A DNA stretch of 64,000 nucleotides from Escherichia phage vB_EcoM_EC001: the sequence record MN445185.1; one strand, 5' to 3'. Of the stretch, positions 61 to 53,628 are shown piece after piece. How positions within the stretch are numbered: the stretch's first letter is position 1; each line of letters begins with the position of its first letter. The notes under the pieces were generated by a model. The model searched no databases. It saw only the letters and a program-made list of their open reading frames with translations, and had not been told where the DNA came from. The translations under genes and the position numbers were made by a program.

Positions 61-63
61 GCT

Positions 64-97
64 AGGCACTCTTCGGAGTGCCTATTATTTTTTTTCT
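64..97 (+). terminator. Rho-independent terminator
   Basis: Stem aggcactc / gagtgcct with ttcg loop, then a T-run. Confidence 0.7.
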
Positions 98-788: not shown

Positions 789-827
789 CCCCTCTTACCT
801 TCGGGTAAGAGGGTATTGTCTTTTTTT
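789..827 (+). terminator. Rho-independent terminator
   Basis: Stem cccctcttacc / ggtaagaggg with ttcg loop, then a T-run. Confidence 0.75.
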
Positions 828-2664: not shown

Positions 2665-2667
2665 TCA

Positions 2668-2705
2668 TTAAGGGGTCTTCGGACCCCTTAATTTTTTGTC
2701 TTTTT
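2668..2705 (+). terminator. Rho-independent terminator
   Basis: Stem ttaaggggtc / gaccccttaa with ttcg loop, then a T-run. Confidence 0.75.
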
Positions 2706-7008: not shown

Positions 7009-7044
7009 ACCTCCTTGCCCATGGGTAAGGAGGTCCCTTTTTAT
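7009..7044 (+). terminator. Rho-independent terminator
   Basis: Stem acctccttgccc / ggtaaggaggt, then a T-run. Confidence 0.6.
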
Positions 7045-7717: not shown

Positions 7718-7747
7718 TTTTCAGATAGATGTTATTTTACTGAACCT
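7718..7747 (+). promoter_or_regulatory. Conserved promoter-like motif, class 2
   Basis: tttcagatagatgttat then 5 nt then tgaacct, repeated at 16118-16146; extended -10-like TGnTATTTT. Confidence 0.4.
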
Positions 7748-8083: not shown

Positions 8084-8124
8084 CCCTACCTAACTTCGGT
8101 TAGGTAGGGTTCTTTTTATTTTTA
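8084..8124 (+). terminator. Rho-independent terminator
   Basis: Stem ccctacctaac / gttaggtaggg with ttcg loop, then a T-run. Confidence 0.75.
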
Positions 8125-11980: not shown

Positions 11981-11993
11981 CAGCGTACGAGTA

Positions 11994-12035
11994 GGCTACC
12001 ACACGATCATATGTGTGGTAGCTTATTTTTTTGTT
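11994..12035 (+). terminator. Rho-independent terminator
   Basis: Stem ggctaccacac / gtgtggtagc, then a T-run. Confidence 0.65.
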
Positions 12036-16072: not shown

Positions 16073-16077
16073 GTGTA

Positions 16078-16117: not shown

Positions 16118-16146
16118 TTTCAGATAGATGTTATCTCAGTGAACCT
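16118..16146 (+). promoter_or_regulatory. Conserved promoter-like motif, class 2
   Basis: Same 17-mer tttcagatagatgttat plus tgaacct as at 7718-7747. Confidence 0.4.
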
Positions 16147-19346: not shown

Positions 19347-20150
19347 ATGTTAAAGCCACGCAAACAGAAAAGATTACAGTTTGTCAAAATAGTACATCCA
19401 CAGTCCCGTCGTGTTACAGGTGGACGTCTCTACGTGGGTAAACACCGTAGTCGTCTTATCACCTGGTCGGCAATGGCCAACGTAGCCACCCAACTCCAGG
19501 CAATGGTTGAAGACCGTTGCCAGTTAAAAGGGGATTTCTTTCAAGAGAAGAAACCCTATCGTGATATCTTCCGTACACTAAAAGCGTGCTGGGTACTCAG
19601 CTGGGTGCCTGGCCGCGAACAACTTTATTTTCTGCGTAAGTTCCCACGCCCTATGCCGAAGGAAAACATTAGCGTTTTCTTAGACAAACTAAAACGCTTT
19701 AATGACATCGGCATAAACGCTAATAAAGAGCAGGTTTCTGCTACAGTAGCAGCCCGAAAACACTTACGCGATTATGTGGCCGATCGAGATGTTGAGTTCG
19801 CTTATATGACGCCGACTGTACCGCTGCTAAACGGTGATGCATCGAAAGCGAAGATGGAAGAGATCGCGTTGAAGTTTCCTAACATCAGACACATCGCACC
19901 AGACGCGGTACTACAGCTGAACACTGAAGGCTGCACGCGTTTACCGACAGTCTCTGACACGGTGTTAGTATCAACACCTGATGTTCCTGATGGAAAGTCG
20001 TTCCTTGAAATGATAAAGAAACGTACAGAGGGTGGATATCAACCGATCTTTCTGGATTCCCTTTCACAACATCCTGAAGTAGAACAAGAATTTAACATGA
20101 ACACTAACAGCCCTTACGACTCCCTATACAAGGACGATAATGATGCTTAA
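19347..20150 (+). CDS. Hypothetical protein
   Basis: AAGGAG SD. Confidence 0.6.
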   Translation: MLKPRKQKRLQFVKIVHPQSRRVTGGRLYVGKHRSRLITWSAMANVATQLQAMVEDRCQLKGDFFQEKKPYRDIFRTLKACWVLSWVPGREQLYFLRKFPRPMPKENISVFLDKLKRFNDIGINANKEQVSATVAARKHLRDYVADRDVEFAYMTPTVPLLNGDASKAKMEEIALKFPNIRHIAPDAVLQLNTEGCTRLPTVSDTVLVSTPDVPDGKSFLEMIKKRTEGGYQPIFLDSLSQHPEVEQEFNMNTNSPYDSLYKDDNDA

Positions 20151-20532
20151 GCCTAAGAAACGTAAAGATGGTGCGGTCATTTTCTCTCCGAGAATCGCTG
20201 TAGCAGTTGGTAAGAAATTACTGGTCCAGGACGGTAAGTGGGTCAGTGACGGATTCAGTCAGTACACCTCGCTATGCATCTCTTCCGAGATGAATCAGAT
20301 GCACGGGAAGAAAGTACGTGACCGACGATCTCAGATGCCAAAAGTTATCCGTGTTGTGGCCGGCTGGTATAAGCGATACATGAAAAAGAACTTCCCACAC
20401 GCAGCGCCGCCGTTTGAAGAAGGGTCTTTTGTTCGTACAGAACCCACCGAAGCGGGTGGCGAATTACCGGTGCGTACCGGCACGGCGTATTCGACGCTGA
20501 CTTCCTTGTGTCGTCAGTCGTACGAAAAGTAG
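20140..20532 (+). CDS. Hypothetical protein
   Basis: Start overlaps the upstream gene. Confidence 0.55.
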   Translation: MMLKPKKRKDGAVIFSPRIAVAVGKKLLVQDGKWVSDGFSQYTSLCISSEMNQMHGKKVRDRRSQMPKVIRVVAGWYKRYMKKNFPHAAPPFEEGSFVRTEPTEAGGELPVRTGTAYSTLTSLCRQSYEK

Positions 20533-20604
20533 AAGGCGTTGAAGGACACTCTACTCCACATCAACTAGGATGACGCTTATCCCAAGGGTAGCGAATAAAG
20601 CAGT

Positions 20605-20641
20605 ACCCTACTCCTTCGGGAGTAGGGTTTCTTCTTTTTTG
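20605..20641 (+). terminator. Rho-independent terminator
   Basis: Stem accctactcc / ggagtagggt with ttcg loop, then a T-run. Confidence 0.75.
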
Positions 20642-20661: not shown

Positions 20662-20692
20662 TTTCAGATATATATTACTTAGGTGAGAGTTA
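20662..20692 (+). promoter_or_regulatory. Conserved 31-bp promoter-like motif, class 1
   Basis: Identical to 872-902. Confidence 0.4.
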
Positions 20693-20738
20693 ACAATTAA
20701 CTCTTATCTAATCGACCATTATCTTAAGGAGTTTTAAC

Positions 20739-21465: not shown

Positions 21466-21494
21466 TCGACGATTGAGGATATAGTCGTGAAGAA

Positions 21495-21525
21495 AAGGGA
21501 GCTTCGGCTCCCCTTCTTTTTTTGT
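21495..21525 (+). terminator. Rho-independent terminator
   Basis: Stem aagggagc / gctcccctt with ttcg loop, then a long T-rich tract. Confidence 0.65.
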
Positions 21526-21643
21526 TTCCTTTTCTTTTTTGTTTGCTCTTGTTCAGATTCTGGTACGCGCTACGCTTTTAATATGCTGGCAGGAGGTCTA
21601 AAAATCTTACGACCTCAATAATCCCTTAACTCGAGTTAACGCG

Positions 21644-22441
21644 ATGTCTTTTACTTCAAAACAGAATCTGCTAAAACTCATCAACGAAGAGAATAAGATA
21701 AGCCCACCGCTTACCTTTGACGATGTTGATATCGGACTGCCGGAGGTTGTGTCAGTAGACGGTCGTGATTCGGAGGTGGTACTAACCTCGAAAATGCGCG
21801 GTGATGAAGGTACGCAAGTGATTGTGGACTACCATCGTCGTCCATTAGAGGACTACCTTACAGGCGATGTTGCCTTTGGCGATGAAGATGTGCATACCAC
21901 GCACGACTTACTCGCGGCGATTAACGAGCGTTTTAATCTGTCTATCTTACCTGAGGATATCGAAGATAACCCCATTGAAGGACAGACGCACACAGTCGTT
22001 GCTGTTGAAACTTCCCACGAGTGGAGAAGTCAAGCGGTCATCGAGCTGAAACCTGCTACACCTCTGGCAGAAGTAATAACCAATACAGAGTTGAGCGGTC
22101 TTCTGTACCCGGATCACCAGGACATCCAGTTGGGTCAGGCGTATATCTATTCGCGCGACATCGATTGTAGCCACATCTCTCGTTTCCTGAGCCTCTTAGC
22201 GGTCGGTATCGAAGTAGATGACACGGCGTTAGCAATCGAACTCAACAAATGTGTTCCTGAGATTTGGGTGGCTGAAGATACCCCATCCCCGTATAACTTG
22301 CGTGGTGCTACTGTCGTATTCGACGGCGTACCTGCAGACTTACCGGGAGCAAATACGGCGTTCGCGAAAGTCGTGTCAGTGCAACTGACCGATAAATGTA
22401 CGAACTTCCAGGGCAGCCTCAACTTACACTTTAACAACTAG
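21644..22441 (+). CDS. Paralog-family protein 1 (putative fibre/receptor-binding protein)
   Basis: Shares the family N-terminal domain and a C-terminal LHFNN-type ending with downstream paralogs. Confidence 0.65.
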   Translation: MSFTSKQNLLKLINEENKISPPLTFDDVDIGLPEVVSVDGRDSEVVLTSKMRGDEGTQVIVDYHRRPLEDYLTGDVAFGDEDVHTTHDLLAAINERFNLSILPEDIEDNPIEGQTHTVVAVETSHEWRSQAVIELKPATPLAEVITNTELSGLLYPDHQDIQLGQAYIYSRDIDCSHISRFLSLLAVGIEVDDTALAIELNKCVPEIWVAEDTPSPYNLRGATVVFDGVPADLPGANTAFAKVVSVQLTDKCTNFQGSLNLHFNN

Positions 22442-22451
22442 GAGGGTATAG

Positions 22452-23294
22452 GTGTCTATTTACGATAAGCCCTCGAAAGAGATGTTGTTAGATGCTATTA
22501 ACCGACAGAACGGATTAACGGCCAATCCACTCACATGGGAGCAGGTTGCAACTGGCTTCCCTGAGTCTGTCCAAACGCCTGGCGCTGACCGGAATACACG
22601 TGTACTCTTATACGGGTTGAACGGCAAGGGCTACAAAGGCAACGTTACGCTCGAATACGACCGTATCGAAATGGAAATTCTGTTCAGGAACGTAATACCG
22701 GTAGTCGTTGCCGACCCGGTAAATAAACTCTCTGAGTTGTTGCCGTTTCTGAATGCGAAATACGGCTTGTCTTTAGTTGCCGATGATATCGTTGACCAGT
22801 CAGTAAAAGATTTGGGAGAAAGCTGGTTAATCGATGTGACTATTAAGCCCGGTTGCTTGGCCTGGCAAGGTGGTTTCCGTTTACGCTTTGCGAAGTTCTT
22901 CCCGAACCTGGCGGATGTGGTGACGGATGTTGACCTCAGCGCAATTATCGCACCGTTCGTGGTTGCTAGTAAACCGCAGGCTGAATATGTGGCGTATGGT
23001 TACGATTGGACTGAACTGCAAAAACAGTTCACTACCGATTGGGCTTACAACCGTGCAATCACTGCAGCGGATGTTGAGTTGTTGAATGAAGTGGTGCCAT
23101 TAAAGTTTGCATATGTGACGGGGGCGAATGCGCAACCTGAACAAATTGCACTCCAAGGTGCACGATTTATGGGGATAACTTCAGTCACACCGAACGATAG
23201 TTACAACCCCGATTATCAGCGTGTGGCGATTATCAAGCTAGCTGCGGACAGCAACTACGCCGGTAATCTCATCCTTCATTATCTCCCGATATAA
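22452..23294 (+). CDS. Paralog-family protein 2
   Basis: GTG start with GGAGGG SD; family N-terminal domain (DRNT..Y.R). Confidence 0.65.
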   Translation: MSIYDKPSKEMLLDAINRQNGLTANPLTWEQVATGFPESVQTPGADRNTRVLLYGLNGKGYKGNVTLEYDRIEMEILFRNVIPVVVADPVNKLSELLPFLNAKYGLSLVADDIVDQSVKDLGESWLIDVTIKPGCLAWQGGFRLRFAKFFPNLADVVTDVDLSAIIAPFVVASKPQAEYVAYGYDWTELQKQFTTDWAYNRAITAADVELLNEVVPLKFAYVTGANAQPEQIALQGARFMGITSVTPNDSYNPDYQRVAIIKLAADSNYAGNLILHYLPI

Positions 23295-23304
23295 GGATTT
23301 TGAC

Positions 23305-24150
23305 ATGCCACTTTTAGCCACAGCTGAAAAGATTATTATCGCGGAGGTTAACGTCGAAAACAATCTCGACTTAAAAGTCGAGGATGTTGTTTTTGGTGTC
23401 CCTGCGATTCCAACGTCTGACGAAGACTTGGCAAAAGCTAACGGTCACAACGCGATGGTGCGTATTCAGGCATTGGCCACGGCTAATGCTATCGGTGCCA
23501 CTACCGTGTACTACGATCGTGTTGACTTCGCAGACATGTTTACCGATCCGGACGGGATTCAACCTTTACGTGTTCCTGCACGTCTCGATGCTGTTTACCA
23601 GATGCATGACGTGGTCGGGTTAATTAACCAGTATTACGGTCTCAGCCTTAAACCTGCAGATGTGGTGAATACCGAAATCGACAGGAAGACATGGCGTGTG
23701 GATCTGATTGCCACGCCCTCTTCTTTAGGTTGGATAGGGCAACAACAGGTACAGCTGTTACCAGGCGATGCGTTGCTTCCTGCAAACTTCGAACCCTTAA
23801 CAGTGATGCCTTACGAGTATCCGTATTTCAACATCAAGGTCGGTCAAGGTGCAGTTTATTCGTATCCCTGGCGCTTTGATAATTTCGCGGAGGAATTTCA
23901 ACGACTAGGTGCTGCGATAACCACAGAACGTCTGGCACAGATTCTCAAAACGGTCACCGGTGATAACTGGACAACATACCGTAACCCTATCGACTTTAAC
24001 CTTCGTGAAGCCGTCGTCGTCTATAACGGGCGTAACAAAGCGGAATTACCAACCAACCCAGCAGTCGACAACGTGCTGATTGTGGAGCTGTCGTTGTACT
24101 GTCTGAATTTTGGCGGGCGTTTGTATTTGCATTACAACGACCCTGATTAA
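23305..24150 (+). CDS. Paralog-family protein 3
   Basis: AAGGA SD; ends LYLHYNDPD. Confidence 0.65.
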   Translation: MPLLATAEKIIIAEVNVENNLDLKVEDVVFGVPAIPTSDEDLAKANGHNAMVRIQALATANAIGATTVYYDRVDFADMFTDPDGIQPLRVPARLDAVYQMHDVVGLINQYYGLSLKPADVVNTEIDRKTWRVDLIATPSSLGWIGQQQVQLLPGDALLPANFEPLTVMPYEYPYFNIKVGQGAVYSYPWRFDNFAEEFQRLGAAITTERLAQILKTVTGDNWTTYRNPIDFNLREAVVVYNGRNKAELPTNPAVDNVLIVELSLYCLNFGGRLYLHYNDPD

Positions 24151-24171
24151 TCCTGAGTAAAGGAAGTAAGA

Positions 24172-25083
24172 ATGAAACCTTTAAACAAAACGTCCGATAA
24201 GCTGGTTCTGGATTTTATTAATGAGAAAAACCCAGACGCAGAACTGGAACTTTCTAAAATAACGCTCGGCACACCGACCCCTATTACCGATGAAGGTGCT
24301 GATCGCAATACCAGCATGACCCTGACTGCGAAAAAGAACTCCGGGTACATCGGTACTCAGGACGTGACTTATAATCGCCTGGAAGGCGGTGCGCTGTTCC
24401 GTAATGTAACCGCATACCTCGACGTTAAACTGCCGAAAACCACCACCGACCTGCTGACGACCCTGAACACCCAATACGGATTGAAGCTGACCGAAGACGA
24501 TATCGTTCCGGCGGCTATTCCGGAAAATACCAACCCGCCGCTGACTAACCCGAACGATCCGGACCCAGCACCGGTTGACCACGTCATTACCTTCAAAGAA
24601 GACTGCTACGCTTATCTGGGCAGCATCCCGGTTAAAATCGGTGCTAAGCCTCAGGTTGGTGAACGTCTGAGTCTGGTGGTAACACAAACCAAGCTCGACG
24701 GCTTGGTTTACCCAGATGGTCCAAGCGAAGCGAAGGGTCAGGGCTACATCTACTCTTACGGTGTAGACTGCACAGCAATCGCAGCATTCCTGAAAGTACA
24801 GGCGAAAGGTGTTATCGCTGGCGACTCTGCATTCCCGGTTGAGCTGAATAAAGTTGTGCCGGAACTGTGGGTTGCATCTGATGAGCCTGCGGATTATAAC
24901 CTGAAAGGCGCTAACGTGTTGTACGTTGGTTCTACTACTGACGATGGCACTGCTTCAGGCGACGAACCTAAGAAACCGGTTGAAGGTGCAAACACTGCTT
25001 ACAACCAGGTTCTGCTGCTGCAGCTGGATGACACTCTGTGCACCAACTTCCAGGGTATCATGTACCTGCACTTTAATGCCTAA
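24172..25083 (+). CDS. Paralog-family protein 4
   Basis: AAGGAAG SD; ends MYLHFNA. Confidence 0.65.
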   Translation: MKPLNKTSDKLVLDFINEKNPDAELELSKITLGTPTPITDEGADRNTSMTLTAKKNSGYIGTQDVTYNRLEGGALFRNVTAYLDVKLPKTTTDLLTTLNTQYGLKLTEDDIVPAAIPENTNPPLTNPNDPDPAPVDHVITFKEDCYAYLGSIPVKIGAKPQVGERLSLVVTQTKLDGLVYPDGPSEAKGQGYIYSYGVDCTAIAAFLKVQAKGVIAGDSAFPVELNKVVPELWVASDEPADYNLKGANVLYVGSTTDDGTASGDEPKKPVEGANTAYNQVLLLQLDDTLCTNFQGIMYLHFNA

Positions 25084-25096
25084 TTAGGCCTCGCTG

Positions 25097-25136
25097 GGAG
25101 GAGGAAATCCTCCTCCTGGCTACTCCTTTCTTTTTT
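25097..25136 (+). terminator. Putative terminator
   Basis: Stem ggaggagg / cctcctcc, T-run about 10 nt downstream. Confidence 0.5.
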
Positions 25137-25152
25137 GGCCGAGGAGGCTATT

Positions 25153-25992
25153 ATGGCTTTATATAGTCTGTCTCAGCGACAATATCTGTACGATGCGATT
25201 AATGCCGAAAACCCGGATGCTGTGCTACCGATGGGTTTAGACAATGCTATCATCGGCACGCCGAAAGCAATCACACCGACAGCAAGCGGTGCCAATACTG
25301 AGATTATCATTCGTGGTCGTCAAGGTCGTGGCTATATCGGTCCTCAGACGTTCCGTTATAAGCGCTTGTCGCTGAACGACTTATTTAAGAACATGACACC
25401 TCAGGTAACTGCACCGAATGCCTACGGTTGGTTGAACGTGGAGTCGAAACGTACTGCGTTTGCGCAGAACCTGAACGGTCGTTATGGATTAAACCTGGTT
25501 GCAGATGATATCCCAGAACAATACGTTTATCTGAACGTAAACAACACGATGCGTATTAACGCTAGCTGTATCCAATACACTGGCAGCATCACCTTTATGT
25601 CTATCCGGGGTAAGAATAGCCTCGAAGACCTCGTGGTAAACGACATCTTGTTGGCTTTGAACCACCCTGCAGCAGCAAGCACTGGTAAGAAATACATGGG
25701 CTTCTTGACGTACGGGGAAGACTTTACTGACGAAGTGCAGGTTATGGCCTCGTTTAAGAACGGGCGAATGGACGTAGGAAGTAACTTTGATTTGGGTTAC
25801 ACGTCCAATCTGATGGCCACATTGGTCGCACGTGGGGTACCGTCGTTTGATCCGACGAACTGCACAATTACCCGCTACAAAACGAGTGAGTTGGCGACCG
25901 CCAATAAAGCGTACGATAACGTATTGCTGATTACCGGCATTCAGAACGACCCGAAAGTAATCGGCGAGTGTATGTTGCACTACAACAACTAG
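25153..25992 (+). CDS. Paralog-family protein 5
   Basis: ATG 25153 with GAGGAGG SD; track used TTG 25135; ends MLHYNN. Confidence 0.65.
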   Translation: MALYSLSQRQYLYDAINAENPDAVLPMGLDNAIIGTPKAITPTASGANTEIIIRGRQGRGYIGPQTFRYKRLSLNDLFKNMTPQVTAPNAYGWLNVESKRTAFAQNLNGRYGLNLVADDIPEQYVYLNVNNTMRINASCIQYTGSITFMSIRGKNSLEDLVVNDILLALNHPAAASTGKKYMGFLTYGEDFTDEVQVMASFKNGRMDVGSNFDLGYTSNLMATLVARGVPSFDPTNCTITRYKTSELATANKAYDNVLLITGIQNDPKVIGECMLHYNN

Positions 25993-26002
25993 GAATTAGC
26001 GA

Positions 26003-26890
26003 ATGGCTATTTATCAACCTTCTAAAGACGTCCTGTTGGCAGCAGTGAACGCACAGAACTCGCTTGCTGTTAAGATGACTGACATCATCTGGTCCTCGCC
26101 AAAGGACATCCGTGGTACGGAGAAGGAAACGCTGACTAACCGTAACACGCAAATTAAAATTACGGCAGATGGGGTAACGGGCTCTACCTGGTCGGGTAAG
26201 AAAAATGTCTTCTACAACCGCATGAAAGTCGAAGACTTGTTAGTGCTGATCGGTGACACGTTGGCGATCGGCCCATCCAACGAAACCTTGTATGCGGCCA
26301 TTCCTGGACTGAACCAACGTTACGGTTTTGTTCTGGAAGAAGCTGACCTGCAGGACGCAGATATCGAATGGAACGGTGATAAGACCGAAGGAACTGTGCG
26401 CGTTGTTGCACATCCGGAGTCTATCGGTTGGGTTGGACAGGCGACATTTAAAGTCGTGAAAGGTGATGAGTCGTTAGTCTCTGCAGTCACCACTAACGTC
26501 CTGACCGGTCTGAAATACCCGAACGGTCAGATGGGTTCCGAAAATGTTACTGCGGTCATTGCAGAGGTTTATTCCTACCCGTACAACTTCACCAAATACC
26601 GTGATACTCTGCTGGCATACACGCCAGGTATTCTGTCCGGACAGCCGTTGACGGATATGGTTAACATGCTGAAATATATTACGGGTACGGCATGGGTAGC
26701 GACCACCTCCGCTTCCTACGGTTTGGCGGGTGCGGAGGTTATCAGCGTTGGTCTGAATGACCCTGTTGCAATGCCGACAAACGCGAAGTACAAGTATGCG
26801 CTGGTGTTGAAACTGCCTGTTACCTGTACCACCATCGTCGGAACGTTGTATCTCCAGTTCAACGATCTGGACGATCCAAGCGAGGTATAA
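26003..26890 (+). CDS. Paralog-family protein 6
   Basis: Family N-terminal domain; ends LQFNDLDDPSEV. Confidence 0.65.
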   Translation: MAIYQPSKDVLLAAVNAQNSLAVKMTDIIWSSPKDIRGTEKETLTNRNTQIKITADGVTGSTWSGKKNVFYNRMKVEDLLVLIGDTLAIGPSNETLYAAIPGLNQRYGFVLEEADLQDADIEWNGDKTEGTVRVVAHPESIGWVGQATFKVVKGDESLVSAVTTNVLTGLKYPNGQMGSENVTAVIAEVYSYPYNFTKYRDTLLAYTPGILSGQPLTDMVNMLKYITGTAWVATTSASYGLAGAEVISVGLNDPVAMPTNAKYKYALVLKLPVTCTTIVGTLYLQFNDLDDPSEV

Positions 26891-26893
26891 TTG

Positions 26894-27721
26894 ATGATCA
26901 ACTATGCTAAGCCGTCAAACGAGTTGGTCTTTGACCTCATTAACCGGGATAACCCAAACCTACCTATTAAAGCGTCGCCGGCAAACTGCTACGTGGAGAA
27001 AGTGACGCAGGTTCCCGTTAATGCAGCTTCCAACAACCGCAATACGTCGGCACGCTTGCGCGGTATTCAGGGTTCCGGATTTCGAGACGCAATCACCGTT
27101 TACTACGACCGTGTGAACTTAGCGCGGTTATTGCCGTGGGGTCCTTCTGTTCAGGCGCAGTTCGTCACGTTTGACGCGCCCAACCTCCACTCAGCCTTTT
27201 CGGTGCTCTTGGATACTTACGGAGTAAACTTCTCTGCAATCGATATCTATAACCTCCCACTGGCGGGTCCCAATACCCCAAATTACACCAATACACAGAA
27301 CATCGTAGCGCTATCGACATCTCCGGCTTATATCGGTTCTGCGACGTTGCGTTATAACCGTGGTTTACCGGTACTAGATACTTCGGTGAAAACGGATGTC
27401 TTGAATGCGATTCAAGAGCCTATTTCACCGTCTCTCGGTAAGAAGTGTATTGATTTGTTGACGTACGGTATTGACTTTACCGCGTATAAAAACCTACTGA
27501 CAGTAGATGCTTCTGGCCTACCGCAGTGGGCTGGTTTGCGTAAGGTGTTGGATGACCTGGGTATTCCGAACTACGCGGGGCCACTGAACAGTAACACCGT
27601 TCAGGATGTGCCGACATCCACCGCTCAGTTCGCTAACAAATCGTACGACCGCGTGGTTGTCCAAACGGGTATCGATGAGGAAGGCGTGAAAGGCGTGGCG
27701 TACTACCACTATAACAGCTAA
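26894..27721 (+). CDS. Paralog-family protein 7
   Basis: GAGG SD; ends YYHYNS. Confidence 0.65.
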   Translation: MINYAKPSNELVFDLINRDNPNLPIKASPANCYVEKVTQVPVNAASNNRNTSARLRGIQGSGFRDAITVYYDRVNLARLLPWGPSVQAQFVTFDAPNLHSAFSVLLDTYGVNFSAIDIYNLPLAGPNTPNYTNTQNIVALSTSPAYIGSATLRYNRGLPVLDTSVKTDVLNAIQEPISPSLGKKCIDLLTYGIDFTAYKNLLTVDASGLPQWAGLRKVLDDLGIPNYAGPLNSNTVQDVPTSTAQFANKSYDRVVVQTGIDEEGVKGVAYYHYNS

Positions 27722-27726
27722 GTGTA

Positions 27727-27752
27727 GGGGCTCTTCGGAGCCCCCTCTTTTG
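27727..27752 (+). terminator. Rho-independent terminator
   Basis: Stem ggggctc / gagcccc with ttcg loop, then a T-rich tract. Confidence 0.6.
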
Positions 27753-27768
27753 GCGATGCGGAGTCCCT

Positions 27769-29181
27769 ATGCTATTTTACTCGAAGGAGTCGGCACTGCT
27801 TGTATACGACCAAGTCAATCGGGATAACCCTGATTTAGTTGTTAAGCTGACGCCGGCTATCGCTGCTTTAACCAGTGGCCCAACTTCAGTTACGTTAAAC
27901 CAACGTAACACCAAAGCTGTTTTCACCGGGTATCCAGGGACAGGTGTACAAGGTAATGTTACCGTGTACTACGACCGGATTAACCTGGCCTCTTTATTTA
28001 ATTTTGTGCCGACTGTGGCTATCAAAGATACAGTCTTAACGGTACGAGACGCGCTACCTGCAATAAACAACGCTTTGGGGCTTACATTAGTTGCTTCTGA
28101 TTTGCAGTCACCTGACGCAAGTTTACCTAAACCGAGCGCTTCGCCGCAGACGTTGAAATTAAATATCTCAGGTAATTGCCCTGCGTTTACAGGCAGCTTA
28201 ACGATACGTTATACCGTCCCGAGCGGTGCAATTTACCCCGATTCTGGACCTGGCCCTAAAACGTTGCTGCAAGGTAACACTATCGCGGGTTATTTCGGAA
28301 CAACCACAATTGCAGAGTTGTTTACACACTCTCAACTTCTTAATGCCACTATATCGGCCGGTGCGTTACCACCGGTACATTCTGGTGCCGAAGGTTGGTA
28401 CAAGTTCTTTTACCAGGGTAGGGTTATTTACCTTCCGATCAGTCCTGTCGCTAGCTCCATCTCCTGGAATACGTTATATACAAACGGACTCGTTTACGGA
28501 ACAGATGATAATGGTAAATACCCTGCGGCGACGCCCGTTAACCAGGGACGCATCATTAGCTTTACAGGCGCAGACAACAAAAGGTTTTACTTCCGTGTTC
28601 GTCTACCTAGTGCCGGGAAAGACCCATACGTCAGCGGCACCCCAACTGCCGCTGAGTTAGCAGGTAGTGAGTTTGAGATGTTCAACTTTCTGTATAATGG
28701 AACGTGGGACAAACCGATTAACAGTTACTGGACGCTGTTCTGTTTATTGAAAGATACACTGAAGACCAACGTCGCCAATCATCGCATGGCGACGTTGTCT
28801 GGAGCAAGTTGGACAAACTTAGAAAAATCATCGAGTGCGGGCAACTACTACTGGTTCCCGGTGCTGGAGTTGGTGGATAAGTCCACAGTTACCTTGGGTT
28901 TAGAAGATATCCATGGTGCGGTAGATTACAGTCTCCAACCGTGCAGCGTGTCCGCAGAAAACACATTTAGTCTCAAGCCGTTAGTGCTCGGTAATCCGGA
29001 TACTACCGATTTCGAACCGGTAGTTGTTACTTCAGAAAACAGTTTCGCACTGCATCCGCCTGCTTTAATGCTGCCGAAGACAGTCGACTTCCAACCTATT
29101 GCGGCTACCGCTGAAATGTATACGCCCCCTGACAAGACAACGTTAACGTCTCTTAACGGTGAACTGGACGGCTTTAAGTAG
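27769..29181 (+). CDS. Fibre-module protein A1 (family N-domain, GPGP motif, C-terminal NGELDGF)
   Basis: GGAG SD; paralog of 31138-32634. Confidence 0.65.
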   Translation: MLFYSKESALLVYDQVNRDNPDLVVKLTPAIAALTSGPTSVTLNQRNTKAVFTGYPGTGVQGNVTVYYDRINLASLFNFVPTVAIKDTVLTVRDALPAINNALGLTLVASDLQSPDASLPKPSASPQTLKLNISGNCPAFTGSLTIRYTVPSGAIYPDSGPGPKTLLQGNTIAGYFGTTTIAELFTHSQLLNATISAGALPPVHSGAEGWYKFFYQGRVIYLPISPVASSISWNTLYTNGLVYGTDDNGKYPAATPVNQGRIISFTGADNKRFYFRVRLPSAGKDPYVSGTPTAAELAGSEFEMFNFLYNGTWDKPINSYWTLFCLLKDTLKTNVANHRMATLSGASWTNLEKSSSAGNYYWFPVLELVDKSTVTLGLEDIHGAVDYSLQPCSVSAENTFSLKPLVLGNPDTTDFEPVVVTSENSFALHPPALMLPKTVDFQPIAATAEMYTPPDKTTLTSLNGELDGFK

Positions 29182-29192
29182 AGGTATCATCT

Positions 29193-30191
29193 ATGTCTTT
29201 TACTTTGCGTTGGAAAAATCCAAACGTAATCCCTACGGTAGTAAAAATCTACCGTGACGTTAAAGATATCACACCAAGCGCTTTGCCTGAACCGATTGCA
29301 ACGCTCTCAAATGGCGAGACAGAATGGCGTGATGCCACCGCCAAACCAGGCGCAATCTATTATTACCTTCTAACGGTAACCGCCAACGGTAAAACAGTAG
29401 CGTCGTCTAGCCAGAAATATACTGTTGAGGTAAAACGCGGGATAGGCCCAATGACTATTCTAAACGGTAACGACCGTTTAGGGTTTATGGGTGAGGTTCC
29501 TTACGACGAACAATGGCTTCCGTCGCAAATGCCACCTGCATTTTTGGCGATGTTCCCTAATCTATTAACCGATCGCGTGGCGTTGTATAAATTTACCCGA
29601 AACGGGAAGATCTATTACATGCTATCTAACACGTCGCAGTTCCCGAATACGCCTGTGGACTGGGCTTCCCTCTATCAAGCTGGTTTAGTCTATGGTACGG
29701 GCGATGCTGGCCCAGAGAACGGCCATGGAACGCTACCGGCCACTCCACAAGACGCTAAGATAGTCCACAAAGGGGATACGTACATCATGCGTCTTCCTCG
29801 CGGCCTGACGATGTCTAGCGAGCCTCCTGCGTATCCTTTCGTAGCTGACTATAATGGGAAAACCCATGATGAAATCGCTTCTCTAACCAACCCGTGTGAG
29901 TATAACGATTTACTTTACACGATGGTTAACGAGGTGCCGTGGAAACAGCGTTGGGCTAACTGGGCAACGAACAGTTATACTTTTCTGGGGCAGGGTACTT
30001 TGGGAACCTCGGCAACGTATTTCGGCGGTGGTGTTCTCTGTATGGAACACGACACCACGGAAGACCGTGTGCTCCATCGTGGTATTTTTAACAATGCCGG
30101 CGGAACACCCGTATCCGCGATTCAGCGTATAAACTATTTATCACCCACCACGAAAGGGCGTTACTACCCTATCTTTGAACTGGTCGAGTAA
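29193..30191 (+). CDS. Fibre-module protein B1 (beta-sandwich-like N-terminus)
   Basis: GAGG SD; paralog of 32647-33636. Confidence 0.65.
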   Translation: MSFTLRWKNPNVIPTVVKIYRDVKDITPSALPEPIATLSNGETEWRDATAKPGAIYYYLLTVTANGKTVASSSQKYTVEVKRGIGPMTILNGNDRLGFMGEVPYDEQWLPSQMPPAFLAMFPNLLTDRVALYKFTRNGKIYYMLSNTSQFPNTPVDWASLYQAGLVYGTGDAGPENGHGTLPATPQDAKIVHKGDTYIMRLPRGLTMSSEPPAYPFVADYNGKTHDEIASLTNPCEYNDLLYTMVNEVPWKQRWANWATNSYTFLGQGTLGTSATYFGGGVLCMEHDTTEDRVLHRGIFNNAGGTPVSAIQRINYLSPTTKGRYYPIFELVE

Positions 30192-30200
30192 GGGGCAGTC

Positions 30201-31124
30201 ATGACTATACGGTTAAGCTGGCCGTCCCAAGCCAGCAAAGGTCTTACCGCGATTGAAATCTACCGCAAGGAAGGTTGGAACGCAACAATCGACGTTTACA
30301 ATCCAGGCGCACCCCACGCAACTTTATCGGGCAACGCGGTAGAGTTCGTAGATAATATCGATACCCTGACGAAGAACACAACCTATCGTTATTGGGTAGC
30401 TGCTGTGAAGGACAGTGAACGACTTATCGGCAATCCGATTACGCAAGGATTCTATCCGGACACCGGGCCGGGTCCGCAAACTATTTTGCGTGGTGACTGG
30501 GCTTCAGGTTATTTCGGTACAGTACCGAATACAGAGTTCTTTAATACTGCCGAGTTAAAACTCATGTTAACTGCGCAGCAGGGAAACATGTTTGTCTACG
30601 ACCCTCAGGAATGGCACAAGTTTATTTTCCGTGGGAGAATTGTCTTCTTCCCAGCGACGATGCATTCGAAAACCAACTCGGTACAAATGGCGTATCAGTA
30701 CGGTATGATGTACGGGACCGATGATGTCGGAAGTATTGTTCCGCAGGGAGCCACAGCGACTAAACAAGATTGTAAGGTCACGAAGGATGGTCGTACGTAC
30801 CGTATCCGATTACCTTACGCAGTCCCGTACGACGCTGTTCTCTCAGGACAGGATTACAACAACGGTGAATGGCGAAACACAATGGGCCGTTTGTATCCTG
30901 TCGCTGCACAGTTCGCAGCCCTCGGTCTTGGTGCGATTGACTCACTTGCAAGACAAGGCGCGACTGCGCAGCCGAATGAGTCAGGTGCCGCTGTATTAGC
31001 TCCTTTGTGGAGCAACAATATATTCGCTTATGCGTATGGCACCGTGCCTATGGGGATTAGTAACACCGCAGGTGTCGGGAACTCGGCCACGATATTCTTT
31101 GCTTTTGAATTAGTCTTACCGTAA
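30201..31124 (+). CDS. Fibre-module protein C1
   Basis: AGGGG SD; paralog of 33639-34538; shares the DTGPGPQ..GYFG motif with A-type proteins. Confidence 0.65.
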   Translation: MTIRLSWPSQASKGLTAIEIYRKEGWNATIDVYNPGAPHATLSGNAVEFVDNIDTLTKNTTYRYWVAAVKDSERLIGNPITQGFYPDTGPGPQTILRGDWASGYFGTVPNTEFFNTAELKLMLTAQQGNMFVYDPQEWHKFIFRGRIVFFPATMHSKTNSVQMAYQYGMMYGTDDVGSIVPQGATATKQDCKVTKDGRTYRIRLPYAVPYDAVLSGQDYNNGEWRNTMGRLYPVAAQFAALGLGAIDSLARQGATAQPNESGAAVLAPLWSNNIFAYAYGTVPMGISNTAGVGNSATIFFAFELVLP

Positions 31125-31137
31125 CGGAGTAAAAGCC

Positions 31138-32634
31138 ATGGGGTTGTATACAGAACCTTCAATGGAACTGCTCTGCCAACAAATTGTGCGTGACAATCCC
31201 GGTTTAGCAGGAAAAATCACCGCTGACTCCATTGGGGTCAGGGGTGTTCCTGTTGCGAGAAACGTTAACGGACGAAACACACAGATTACGTTGGTAGGAA
31301 AACCCGGTAAAGGATTTGCTGGGGAAATAACGGTATATTACGACCGGTTGAATCTGGCCAGTCTGTTCAAGTCTGGCCCGAATATGGTGAGTATTCCACG
31401 TAGCGCACAAACCCATGCGGAAGCGTTACCGGCGTTCAATGAATTGAACGGGTTGAACTTAACCGCGAGTGATATCACCAGTCCAAACGTTGCATTAATG
31501 AAATACGCTACGCCGGAAACTGTAACTCTGACGGCGCACGCTAACTCCTTGTGCTATACCGGGTCATGCAAGATGACCTATGTTTACGAACCGATTGCGA
31601 TGTATCCGAAGTCGGGTCCTGGGCCAAAAGGATTAATGGCTGGTAATGAGTTATACGGATTCTTTGGGCTGGTAAGCGCGGAAGAGTTATTCACATCTGA
31701 TGAAATGGTGTATGCACTCTATAACGGCACCAACTGGCCTAACCGCTACGCTATCAAGTGGCTCAAATTCTTTCTGAATGGGGCGGTAGTGTTTGTTCCG
31801 ACCCGTGCGATTTGCAACGTTACCTGGGCAGACCTGTACAACAATGGTGCAATATTTGATTCCGGAGACGCAGGACCTCGCCCGAAGTCGACTTACACAC
31901 CTGTCGATGTTGAACAGTTGAAATACATGGTAAAACGGGATGATGAAGGAACGCATTATTTCAGAATGTCTATCCCGTATTACACCGAGAACGCCGCCGC
32001 GCCTGATTGGAGTAAACCGCCGTCAATCACCTCTATCCTGTCACTGACCAGCAAATTGGGGTCGGTGAACGTATATGGGGAGTGGGGAACTCTTAGCACG
32101 ACTGATGCTAACTTCCTGGATTACGTGTGGTTACGACACCAGTTCGGTGCCGACCAAGCGTATTACCAGTCTATCAGTGGGAGCTATCGTTCATACACCT
32201 ACATCTACACCTCTTCTGGCTTTTGGCCAATCCTGGAGATGTTTGATGTTGCCAATGAACCTGTGCCGTTGATTGACGAAGGTGCAGAACTGACATGGGC
32301 ACCGTCCGTGGTTACTCTGACGGACATCTACCAAAATGAATCGCTTCGTGTGGTGCCTATTACGGAAACCTCCGCTGCAGCGAATCCACGTCCGTTAGTT
32401 TTCAACACCGACAACACCGAAACTGCCACCCCTGCCTGGCTGCGGGAAGCGTCATCAGACTCACCACGTCCTCTGCTTGCCACGACGGACAATGATGAAC
32501 GTGCATATTCCGTCGCGGTAACAGGCATGGCTAGCGTTAAGATTAGACCGATTATTCTCACGACTGACCAAATCGCCCAACCTTCAAAAATTACTCTGGG
32601 CGATACTAACGGTGAGTTGGATGGATTCCAATAA
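31138..32634 (+). CDS. Fibre-module protein A2
   Basis: GGAG SD; ends NGELDGFQ. Confidence 0.65.
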   Translation: MGLYTEPSMELLCQQIVRDNPGLAGKITADSIGVRGVPVARNVNGRNTQITLVGKPGKGFAGEITVYYDRLNLASLFKSGPNMVSIPRSAQTHAEALPAFNELNGLNLTASDITSPNVALMKYATPETVTLTAHANSLCYTGSCKMTYVYEPIAMYPKSGPGPKGLMAGNELYGFFGLVSAEELFTSDEMVYALYNGTNWPNRYAIKWLKFFLNGAVVFVPTRAICNVTWADLYNNGAIFDSGDAGPRPKSTYTPVDVEQLKYMVKRDDEGTHYFRMSIPYYTENAAAPDWSKPPSITSILSLTSKLGSVNVYGEWGTLSTTDANFLDYVWLRHQFGADQAYYQSISGSYRSYTYIYTSSGFWPILEMFDVANEPVPLIDEGAELTWAPSVVTLTDIYQNESLRVVPITETSAAANPRPLVFNTDNTETATPAWLREASSDSPRPLLATTDNDERAYSVAVTGMASVKIRPIILTTDQIAQPSKITLGDTNGELDGFQ

Positions 32635-32646
32635 GAGGTAACGACA

Positions 32647-33636
32647 ATGGCTTTTACAATTCGTTGGACGAACAATAACCCTGGGGCTTCGACCGTGAAG
32701 CTGTACCGCGACACCAAACCTCTGGTGCGTACAGCATTACCTGAACCTCTGGCAACGTTCACTAACGGGGAAACTGAGTATACTGACCGAACAGCGATAC
32801 TGGGGACAACGTATTACTACATGACCACTGTGACAGTGGGAAGCCGAACACTGTTCAGTCCGCAGAAATCAATTCTGATTCAGAACCGTCGCGGTATCGG
32901 CATCGTGGCTCCACAGTACGGTGATGACCGCTTTGCGTATTACGGGTACGTGGCGTACGGTGAATTACCTAGCGCGGGTGATTATCCGCCAGGGTTTATG
33001 GCCCTTTCTGGATATGACCCAACTGTTAAGCCGGGCTTGATGAAGTTCCAGCTAGACGGTAAAATTCTGTATCTGTTTAGTGGTCTTCGTGTGAACGGCA
33101 ACACACCGTATAGCCGTGATGCGATTTATAACGCGTGTTTGCTGTACGGTGTGGCGGGACCTGGTCCGGAAGGCGGTCATGGCGATTTACCTGACGTTGA
33201 CCAGGCTGGGGAGTTTACGTGGTTGGGTGACCGCTATCGGATGCGCCTGCTGCGCGGTTTAACACTCGACAGTGAAAGCCCGGTCATGACACTCGACGCA
33301 CAGTGGAACGGTAAACTCCATGACGAGTCGCCGTATACTGCCGATAGCGAATACAACCGACTCATCTATGGGATAAGTAGCTGGTTCCCAGAAAAGAAAA
33401 AAGTGATGTCCCTGATAAAGTGGTCGAACACCAGCATATTCGGAAGTGGATCGCTGGTGGCAGGCCGTGGGGCGCATTGTCAGGAGTTTGACCCAGACAG
33501 TAAGTTGGGGCTGACGCGCGGATGGGCGGCGGCGGATTCCACTGATACCGTGGATAACCTCCAGCGTATACAACATGTCCCTGGTGCGACCGTGGGCGGT
33601 ATTTGGATTCCAGTAATCGAGCTTATCGAGGATTAA
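32647..33636 (+). CDS. Fibre-module protein B2
   Basis: GAGG SD. Confidence 0.65.
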   Translation: MAFTIRWTNNNPGASTVKLYRDTKPLVRTALPEPLATFTNGETEYTDRTAILGTTYYYMTTVTVGSRTLFSPQKSILIQNRRGIGIVAPQYGDDRFAYYGYVAYGELPSAGDYPPGFMALSGYDPTVKPGLMKFQLDGKILYLFSGLRVNGNTPYSRDAIYNACLLYGVAGPGPEGGHGDLPDVDQAGEFTWLGDRYRMRLLRGLTLDSESPVMTLDAQWNGKLHDESPYTADSEYNRLIYGISSWFPEKKKVMSLIKWSNTSIFGSGSLVAGRGAHCQEFDPDSKLGLTRGWAAADSTDTVDNLQRIQHVPGATVGGIWIPVIELIED

Positions 33637-33638
33637 TC

Positions 33639-34538
33639 ATGCCTATTACATTACACTTTGCACAACGGAAGCCACAGGCGCTCGATAACATCGAAATCTA
33701 TCGCAAGACGCCGGGCAACGCCACCATTGATGTTAATGCACCGGGAACGCCTCTGGCAACCCTTCCGGGTGACGCTACATCGTACGAAGACAACGCTGTG
33801 GAAAACAACACCACTTACCGTTATTGGATAGCTGCGGTTAAAGACGGTGAGCGTGTCTTCAACACCCCTACCGCCCAAGGGTTCTTTTTAGACACCGGGC
33901 CTGGCCCCCAGAAGCTGTTATACGGCGACTGGCACGCTGGATACTTTGGAACAGTAACGCCAGCAGAGTTATTCACTAACACGGAACTGAACAGCCTCGT
34001 GGTGAATATGTTCAGTTCCGCCGTTGGTGCCTGGCATAAGTTCATTTACAAAAACCGTATTCTGTTTATGTCCGATAACTCGATAATATACGCTAGCCCG
34101 CAGTTCATTTATAACCAGGGGCTGATGTACGGCCAGGATGGCAACGGATATGTACCGGGCTGGGCTACTGCACGTAACCAACGCCGCACGGTGACGAAAA
34201 ACGGTTACGAATACGTGGTGCGCTTGCCGTATTTGTTCGACTACAAATTCTGGACGTCTTACGTTGGAAGCGGTAACACTGAGTTGTATCTCGACGGTGA
34301 GTGGTTTAACACCTTCGCGCGCCTGTACAACTACAGTGGGCAGTTTCCGCGCTTTGACGACATTCCGGTCGGTCCAATCGATTCGGTTACTGCCCAACAA
34401 TCTGCATTCTTTGCGGCTATGAATAACACGTCCAGTCAGTGGTACAACCGTCCACCTTACCCTGAGTCGCCGTCGTGGAGTAACTACGGTACCACTACAA
34501 TACGCTCCATTGCGGTACTTGAACTCGTTCTGCCTTAA
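33639..34538 (+). CDS. Fibre-module protein C2
   Basis: ATG 33639 with GAGGA SD; track start 33603 overlaps B2. Confidence 0.65.
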   Translation: MPITLHFAQRKPQALDNIEIYRKTPGNATIDVNAPGTPLATLPGDATSYEDNAVENNTTYRYWIAAVKDGERVFNTPTAQGFFLDTGPGPQKLLYGDWHAGYFGTVTPAELFTNTELNSLVVNMFSSAVGAWHKFIYKNRILFMSDNSIIYASPQFIYNQGLMYGQDGNGYVPGWATARNQRRTVTKNGYEYVVRLPYLFDYKFWTSYVGSGNTELYLDGEWFNTFARLYNYSGQFPRFDDIPVGPIDSVTAQQSAFFAAMNNTSSQWYNRPPYPESPSWSNYGTTTIRSIAVLELVLP

Positions 34539-34586
34539 CAGGAGACTTCATGGGGTTGTATAGCGCACTTTACCATAACAGCTAAA

Positions 34587-34617
34587 AATAGGCCCTTCGG
34601 GGCCTATTTTCTTTTTT
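34587..34617 (+). terminator. Rho-independent terminator
   Basis: Stem aataggccc / gggcctatt with ttcg loop, then a T-run. Confidence 0.75.
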
Positions 34618-38131: not shown

Positions 38132-38185
38132 TTATCATAATTTAACGAGGAACTTGACGGGGTTAAAGCCTGAGAATAACCCATG

Positions 38186-38219
38186 CCCTCTTCCCCACGG
38201 GGAAGAGGCTTTCTTTTTA
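38186..38219 (+). terminator. Rho-independent terminator
   Basis: Stem cctcttcccc / gggaagagg, then a T-run. Confidence 0.7.
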
Positions 38220-53533: not shown

Positions 53534-53628
53534 TGCAAACACTCCTAATCTGTAATAAAACGGAGACCGCCCTCCCAATAACGGAAGGGCGGTTTACCTA
53601 CGGACTACCCGCCCGTAGGCAGTCCGTC

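Follow-up and report, generated by a model that had tools for sequence, protein, structure and literature searches.

The stretch of DNA analysed here, referred to as the window, comprises 64,000 nucleotides of Escherichia phage vB_EcoM_EC001 (MN445185.1). Over its full length the window is 95-97% identical to the SPN3US-like jumbo phages of the genus Seoulvirus (96% to SPN3US itself), and positions 96001-160000 of Escherichia phage vB_EcoM_Lh1B (OK428535.1) are collinear with it base for base. The Lh1B record differs from the window by approximately 3.5% substitutions and by scattered Ns, a pattern which suggests that it is a reference-guided consensus, mapped onto a reference with the sequence of the window. 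Gene coordinates were taken from the Lh1B annotation, which coincides with the open reading frames of the window, and from the RefSeq annotation of complete SPN3US. SPN3US is among the phages shown to form a phage nucleus (PMC13282480; PMC7598289), and eight of its genes are annotated as RNA polymerase beta-type subunits, which together represent split virion and non-virion polymerases. A tRNA scan of the window found no tRNA, and Rfam covariance models gave 0 matches above the gathering score across the whole window.

We examined a hairpin at 20603-20641 that lies 5' of a conserved promoter-like motif and leader hairpin (20662-20704). The plus strand at 20603-20630 reads GTACCCTACTCC-TTCG-GGAGTAGGGTTT, followed by CTTCTTTTTTG, and folds with -21.1 kcal/mol (z = -4.7). 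The hairpin and the motif that follows it are the best-conserved part of their neighbourhood. Indeed, a BLAST search with the intergenic module at 20605 (approximately 115 nt) matched Erwinia Machinavirus phages, Salmonella phage pSal-SNUABM-04 and Cronobacter phage CR5, with the flanking genes unmatched. We found that the hairpin is kept in three genera (Seoulvirus, Machinavirus and that of Cronobacter phage CR5) with wobble and compensatory changes, and that the UUCG loop is present in 7 of the 8 phages aligned. The changes, read directly off an alignment with few variable sequences, comprise a U.G change in Caitlin, a paired one-base deletion in both arms in pEa_SNUABM_4 and a re-paired stem in CR5.

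The sequence-only reading had proposed at least ten terminators with a ttcg loop, and we counted exactly ten plus-strand C(TTCG)G hairpins in the window that have a T-rich tail, starting at 61, 790, 2667, 8084, 16075, 20603, 21494, 27727, 34585 and 41621. All ten have the C-G closing pair, with CTTCGG on the sense strand of the gene, and each starts 2-70 nt past the stop codon of a gene in the same orientation. When both strands were searched and stems down to 6 bp were admitted, the number of C(TTCG)G hairpins was 11; in a scan without a tail condition, 9 of these have 6 T or more among the 10 nt directly 3' of the stem. The corresponding number in 200 dinucleotide-preserving shuffles of the window was 0.24 on average and 3 at most, which rules out a chance origin, and the CTTCGG hexamer alone is not enriched in the window (36 observed vs 29). 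Eight more terminator-like hairpins have other loops, which brings the total to 18 sites (Table 1). The eight sites that were folded have minimum free energies of -21 to -33 kcal/mol and z scores of -4.5 to -6.5. The shared stems that had been pointed out earlier are present, as ACCCTACTCC at 20605, ACCCTACTCCC at 62823, CCTACCTCCC at 41621 and CCCTACCTAAC at 8084; the hairpin at 62823 has the stem of 20605 but a GTT triloop, and its earlier inclusion among the UUCG-looped members did not hold. A search of the window with the fixed-spacing pattern CCTAC-N12-GTAGG gave no matches because stem lengths differ.

Table 1. Predicted terminators of the window, with strand (a point marks bidirectional sites) and with the fold, conservation or differences in related phages.
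Position	Strand	Feature	Fold, conservation and differences
61-86	+	C(UUCG)G terminator after gene ending at 56, tail ATTTTTTTTCTT	two compensatory pairs vs SPN3US orthologue (93423)
790-813	+	C(UUCG)G terminator after thymidylate kinase gene (ends 783), stem CCCTCTTACC	SPAsTU: T-A to C-G
2667-2692	+	C(UUCG)G terminator, 2 nt after stop at 2664	SPAsTU: two compensatory pairs, loop UUUU
7009-7034	+	terminator hairpin, CAUG loop, tail CCCTTTTTATTT	
8084-8109	+	C(UUCG)G terminator, stem CCCTACCTAAC	SPAsTU: loop UCCG
11987-12030	+	long-stem terminator, 8-nt loop	
16075-16108	+	C(UUCG)G terminator after tail-protein gene (ends 16072)	SPAsTU: whole stem replaced, UUCG retained
20603-20641	+	C(UUCG)G terminator, stem CCCTACTCC, and T-tract	-21.1 kcal/mol (z = -4.7); kept across three genera
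21494-21515	+	C(UUCG)G terminator inside 44-aa Lh1B ORF	SPAsTU: two compensatory pairs
25091-25122	+	strong hairpin GGGAGGAGG-AAAU-CCUCCUCC, T-tract distant	
27727-27744	+	C(UUCG)G hairpin 5 nt past stop, weak U-tract CUCUUUUGG	SPAsTU: two compensatory pairs
34585-34610	+	C(UUCG)G terminator	loop TTCA in Lh1B, TGAA in SPN3US
38185-38210	+	terminator, CACG loop, stem CCCTCTTCCC	SPAsTU orthologue: UUCG
40384-40414	.	palindromic bidirectional terminator between convergent genes 39776-40291 (+) and 40417-40908 (-)	
41621-41644	.	bidirectional terminator between convergent genes 41033-41581 (+) and 41662-42333 (-); UUCG on plus transcript	
47059-47088	-	terminator after gene 47100-48302	SPAsTU: about three compensatory pairs
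53564-53595	-	terminator ACCGCCCUUCC-loop-GGGAGGGCGGU, tail CCGUUUUAUUAC; second hairpin precedes	
62823-62847	.	bidirectional terminator between convergent genes 61553-62815 (+) and 62878-63087 (-); 20605 stem, GUU/AAC triloop	SPAsTU: compensatory change

Position, polarity and conservation of the hairpins

A genome-wide scan for the stem-loop had been suggested as a check, and we ran it on the window and on whole SPN3US, where the C(UUCG)G hairpin family was borne out. With no condition on tail or position, SPN3US contains 32 C(UUCG)G hairpins. A co-oriented annotated gene lies upstream of 31 of the 32, and 26 have 6 or more T within the 10 nt downstream, while six lack a good U-tract. The hairpins are polar, with a mean of 7.0 T in the 10 nt downstream vs 4.0 A upstream. 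A broader scan of SPN3US, for a hairpin and a T-tail after a co-oriented open reading frame, gave 62 strand-specific terminators at 52 sites, and the median distance from stop codon to hairpin is approximately 7 nt. UUCG loops are present in 27 of these 62 strong terminators and in 25 of the 55 perfect tetraloop hairpins of SPN3US, and G.U outnumbers A.C by 24 to 6 in unidirectional stems; the loop statistics of the 62 terminators and the wobble count are conditioned on the rules of the terminator scan, which required a T-rich tail and allowed G.U. An excess of G.U over A.C is expected if selection acts on the sense RNA and not on the DNA. The stem at 16075, since it contains two G.U pairs, is stable only in the sense RNA.

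We found that the structure is conserved where the sequence is not. Salmonella phage SPAsTU, which is 78% identical to the window, has a hairpin at the corresponding place for 16 of the 18 sites. Between the stems of the two phages there are about 12 compensatory changes of a pair and a few single changes that wobble pairing tolerates, and zero disruptive changes. At 96% identity, SPN3US already differs from the window by two compensatory pairs at site 61. The loops drift among UUCG, UCCG, UUUU and UUAG between the window and SPAsTU, and UCCG, present in some orthologues, also belongs to the UNCG class. What the compared sequences show directly is the anatomy of the hairpins, their position and polarity, and their conservation and covariation.

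All three convergent junctions of the window, and about 15 of the 18 in SPN3US, contain exactly one palindrome, and each palindromic hairpin at the junctions of the window is flanked by A- and T-tracts. Two bidirectional hairpins between convergent genes had been described earlier. Both of these (41621 and 62823) stand, but the count does not, as 40384-40414 is a third. Taken as a whole, the earlier proposal of an intrinsic-terminator family is supported by position, the sense-strand loop, the polar T-tract, wobble pairs, compensatory substitutions and the convergent palindromes, and the comparison of sequences confirmed that the hairpin family is real and conserved.

Exact inversions of the 4-nt loop were seen at two sites, where the palindromes are otherwise identical between strains. 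At the 41621 palindrome, TTCG in the window (41631-41634) corresponds to CGAA in SPN3US (138817-138820), and at this bidirectional site the flip moves UUCG from the plus to the minus transcript. BLAST identities point to the SPN3US orientation in at least five other strains. At 34585 (window 34596-34599), TTCA in Lh1B corresponds to TGAA in SPN3US. Two further arrangements were observed. On the minus strand at 53534-53628, two strong hairpins stand in succession after a gene for a 1376-aa virion protein, with a U-tract only at the second. At SPN3US 67343-67425, back-to-back UUCG terminators of opposite orientation share an intergenic region, and the annotation has no minus-strand gene close to it.

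The hairpins as candidate terminators of phage transcripts

We hold it to be likely that the hairpins are intrinsic terminators of an SPN3US-like nucleus-forming jumbo phage, that is, factor-independent elements which end transcripts made by the phage's own multisubunit RNA polymerases and protect their 3' ends. Termination itself, the identity of the polymerase and its independence of a factor are what we infer here. Just past the stop codon, a G+C-rich stem of 7-13 bp would form in the RNA that emerges from the polymerase, and its fast folding would, at roughly half the sites, be nucleated by the extra-stable C(UUCG)G tetraloop. Formation of the stem while the polymerase is on a weak rU:dA hybrid would release the transcript, and the 3' hairpin left on the mRNA would protect it from 3' exonucleases. 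Perfect palindromes flanked by an A-tract and a T-tract would serve both transcripts at convergent junctions. Like phiKZ, the phage probably does not depend on the host RNA polymerase. Since the phage encodes its own polymerases and probably does without the host enzyme, these signals are most likely read by the phage polymerases. According to the literature, the polymerase that presumably reads these terminators lacks the alpha and omega subunits and acts in a phage nucleus from which host factors are shut out.

The hairpins resemble bacterial Rho-independent terminators, with which they share a G+C-rich hairpin of 7-13 bp, a loop of 3-8 nt, a U-tract of 6-9 nt and the A-tract/U-tract symmetry of bidirectional sites. 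Unlike bacterial terminators, they have a strong bias in the orientation of the C-G closing pair and a pyrimidine-rich 5' arm. A second resemblance is to the C(UUCG)G hairpins that are plentiful between the genes of T4 and of other phages (Tuerk et al. 1988, PNAS 85:1364, as cited in PMC8948821 and PMC4371310). The loop and closing pair are identical, both sets are enriched between the genes of a large virulent enterobacterial phage, and both are associated with transcript ends and mRNA stability. However, T4 uses the host RNA polymerase while the phage of the window very probably uses its own, and, unlike the T4 hairpins, those of the window type nearly all have U-tracts and form subfamilies by stem sequence.

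An alternative is that the hairpins are mainly 3'-end stabilisers or processing barriers, such that transcripts read through and are trimmed by exonucleases back to a UUCG hairpin, which sets the half-life of the mRNA. Stabilisation of mRNA by UUCG hairpins is known from T4 (cited in PMC8948821), and several conserved members of the family have a weak U-tract or none (27727 in the window, where only 5 of 10 tail nucleotides are T, and 2156, 92501 and 234327 in SPN3US). Furthermore, many hairpins lie between tightly packed co-directional genes, where complete termination would silence the downstream genes unless a promoter follows. Several hairpins do have promoter-like motifs after them, and this argues against the stabiliser reading, as does the run of at least 6 T in 10 nt after 26 of 32 hairpins, which a pure exonuclease barrier would not need. 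The A-tract/palindrome/T-tract symmetry of the convergent junctions and the termination brought about by equivalent phiKZ and 201phi2-1 elements in reporter assays point the same way, and we regard stabilisation as an unlikely main function. Within a family of terminators, the hairpin at 27727 may be a leaky terminator or a stabiliser, and some other members without a good U-tract may likewise be stabilisers, processing barriers or leaky sites.

Stem sequences and the terminators of phiKZ and 201phi2-1

We questioned whether the stems are alike beyond their fold. Among the SPN3US terminator sites, whatever the loop, the pair that closes the loop is 5'-C...G-3' in 94% and position -2 on the 5' side is C in 65%. 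The 5' arm is pyrimidine-rich at 43 sites and purine-rich at 14. Twelve pairs of terminators have a common 8-mer or longer in the 5' arm vs 1.2 expected, an approximately tenfold excess (each arm shuffled internally, 300 shuffles, maximum 6). The stems that recur in SPN3US include CCCTCTTACC, that of the 790 terminator, with three copies, as well as CCCTACTCC and CCTACCTACTCC, and CCCTCTCC. The similarity of the stem sequences exceeds the needs of a generic terminator. Copies with the same stem have dissimilar flanks, and recent duplication as the source of the common stems is therefore unsupported. On the sequence comparison, the common stems would derive either from old duplication with decay of the flanks or from a sequence preference.

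Transcript ends have been mapped in two related phages. In phiKZ, ONT-cappable-seq mapped 133 transcript ends or termination regions (Putzeys et al. 2024, PMC10914365), and a motif made up of a C-rich/G-rich stem-loop and TTAT, BCCYCCCCHWWDGGGRRGGBYTTATKYYGT, is common to 61 predicted intrinsic terminators (PMC10914365). For 201phi2-1 the mapping gave 132 transcript ends, of which 15 are bidirectional, and eight of the terminators were confirmed in vivo; its main motif (motif A) resembles that of phiKZ (PMC11512511). Our own scan of the first 50 kb of phiKZ found six UUCG-looped hairpins of like style, such as CCCTCCC-TTCG-GGGAGGG-CTTTATTTTC. The two phages belong to the same virus group as the phage of the window and have homologous phage-encoded multisubunit RNA polymerases. 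Their terminators also have a C/Y-rich 5' arm, a G/R-rich 3' arm, CC/GG beside a 4-nt loop and a U-rich tail, and they lie just after genes, with a bidirectional subset. Frequent UUAU in the tail is a possible further likeness: TTAT is present in the tail of 30 of the 62 SPN3US terminators and is common at bidirectional and minus-strand sites, a raw count in tails that are T-rich to begin with.

There are differences as well. The Seoulvirus stems are more varied and, at 9-13 bp vs about 7, longer, and their dominant loop is UUCG vs HWWD in the phiKZ consensus; furthermore, the phiKZ sites were mapped experimentally while the Seoulvirus sites are predicted from sequence. On the sites of the window, the 30-nt phiKZ consensus reaches at best 18-23 of 30, against a background mean of 16.7 and a 99th percentile of 20, and no position of the window scores 24 or more. 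Scores this marginal led us not to file the sites as matches to the published motif. By these comparisons, the hairpins of the window can be classed as the same kind of element as the phiKZ terminators, but not as matches to the phiKZ motif.

We considered that the stems might be a sequence-specific signal (C-rich 5' arm, CC/GG closing pairs, UUAU tail) for the phage RNA polymerases or for an RNA-binding factor, either a termination factor or the ChmC/Imp6 mRNA-binding protein tied to export from the phage nucleus. Such a signal would account for the preference for C-G and -2 C irrespective of the loop, the excess of pyrimidine-rich 5' arms and of common 8-mers, and the occurrence of the same bias in phiKZ, and ChmC is known to bind phage mRNA (review PMC13282480). 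It would fit poorly, however, with the many unrelated stems (e.g., TAGGCACTC, AAGGGGTC and ACCAGCTATCC), with the free replacement of orthologous stems while the structure is kept, with the weak scores of the strict phiKZ consensus on the window sites, and with the function of 201phi2-1 terminators with host polymerase in uninfected cells. We therefore regard a signal of this type as improbable. Similarly doubtful is a chimallivirus-specific 3'-end code, in which the stem bias would be more than a side effect of stability, the C-rich arm, the C-G closing pair and 8-11-mers such as CCCTACTCC, CCCTCTTACC and ACCCACTCC(C) would be read by the polymerases or a ChmC-like factor, and termination would be coupled to the marking of transcripts for exit from the nucleus.

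With the hairpins taken as intrinsic terminators, the 18 sites constitute a comparatively validated terminator map of a Seoulvirus segment, which sets the limits of transcription units and reveals at least one open reading frame that is probably spurious. This is the 44-aa frame at 21487-21621 of the Lh1B annotation, which starts 7 nt before the UUCG hairpin at 21494-21515 and spans it; it is probably not a gene. SPN3US-like phages are genetic models for giant phages, and our literature searches found no transcript-boundary maps for them; searches on SPN3US terminators, promoters and RNA-seq found no transcript-end mapping or in vitro termination for any Seoulvirus. The bias in stem sequence held in common with phiKZ hints at family-wide, testable sequence preferences of terminators for phage multisubunit polymerases, and the terminators of the window are compact and, as predicted, strong parts for engineering. 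Apart from the stem bias and the map, our observations describe expected biology.

Promoter-like motifs and variable gene modules

A promoter-like repeat, TTTCAGATATATATTAC(T/C)TAGGTGAGAG, is present at 872-915 and 20662-20704, after the terminators at 790 and 20605, and a variant motif, TTTCAGATAGATGTTAT, at 7719-7747 and 16118-16146. Eight phages from three genera have the 17-mer TTTCAGATATATATTAC without any change. SPN3US contains six copies of the TTTCAGATATATATTAC type and about nine of the TTTCAGATAGATGTTAT type. By its sequence, the repeat fits the AT-rich early (virion polymerase) promoter class of jumbo phages (PMC7598289). A short leader hairpin (892-915 and 20684-20706) lies directly 3' of the promoter-like motif and begins inside the conserved GGTGAGAG. 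Its arms covary between copies and phages (GAGAGTTA/TAACTCTC, GAGCGTTA/TAACGCTT and GAGATTAG/TAATCTT), and it may be a stabiliser of the 5' leader or a regulatory stem. At SPN3US 165692-165746, the distance from a promoter-like motif to the UUCG terminator downstream is only about 37 nt; this arrangement could be an attenuator or could define a very short transcript.

The cassette of terminator and promoter-like motif is repeated and is more conserved than the genes that flank it. PeSL (promoter-early stem-loop) regulatory cassettes were reportedly described in T4-type phages by Arbiol and colleagues in 2010. The pairing of a repeated intergenic stem-loop with an early-type promoter is seen in the window at 790 with 872, 16075 with 16118 and 20605 with 20662. 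A further likeness is the location of the cassettes of the window at borders of variable gene content, where three of six indel borders abut a terminator. Relative to SPN3US, the window has six large indels or replacements, and these three (19787-20576, 21483-21491 and 34560-34568 in the window) end within 30 nt upstream of UUCG terminators. They correspond to an extra 790 nt in the window, the loss of SPN3US gp129 and the loss of gp115-gp113, the last being about 3.4 kb of paralogous virion genes. Since these indels end near UUCG terminators, the terminators mark borders of variable gene modules. Selection to keep the terminator of an operon, combined with unequal crossing-over among paralogous genes, can explain the indels without recombination mediated by the cassette.

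It is very improbable that the hairpins are elements of the DNA itself, such as protein-binding or recombination palindromes or small mobile REP-like or MITE-like repeats: the same stems do occur at several loci, the loop inversions between strains are hairpin-mediated events at DNA palindromes, and half of the large indels end close to a hairpin, but the loop is strictly sense-oriented and the T-tract polar, substitutions that G.U pairing allows would give mismatches in DNA, the hairpins keep fixed orthologous places after stop codons in different genera, and the repeated stems have dissimilar flanks. The REP/MITE assignment was rejected for hairpins that occupy orthologous positions, are oriented with genes and differ in their flanks.

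We also observed repeats within the coding sequence of the window. At 21644-34538, about a dozen paralogous genes for virion structural proteins (265-500 aa) stand in an array and have internal repeats in common, such as ACCGTNTACTACGACCG, and this array is likely to be the substrate for unequal crossing-over relative to SPN3US. At 1704-2243, a perfect 270-nt tandem duplication in the gene at 1738-2664 gives an in-frame repeat of 90 aa. The duplication is absent from SPN3US, where gp163 is 270 nt shorter.
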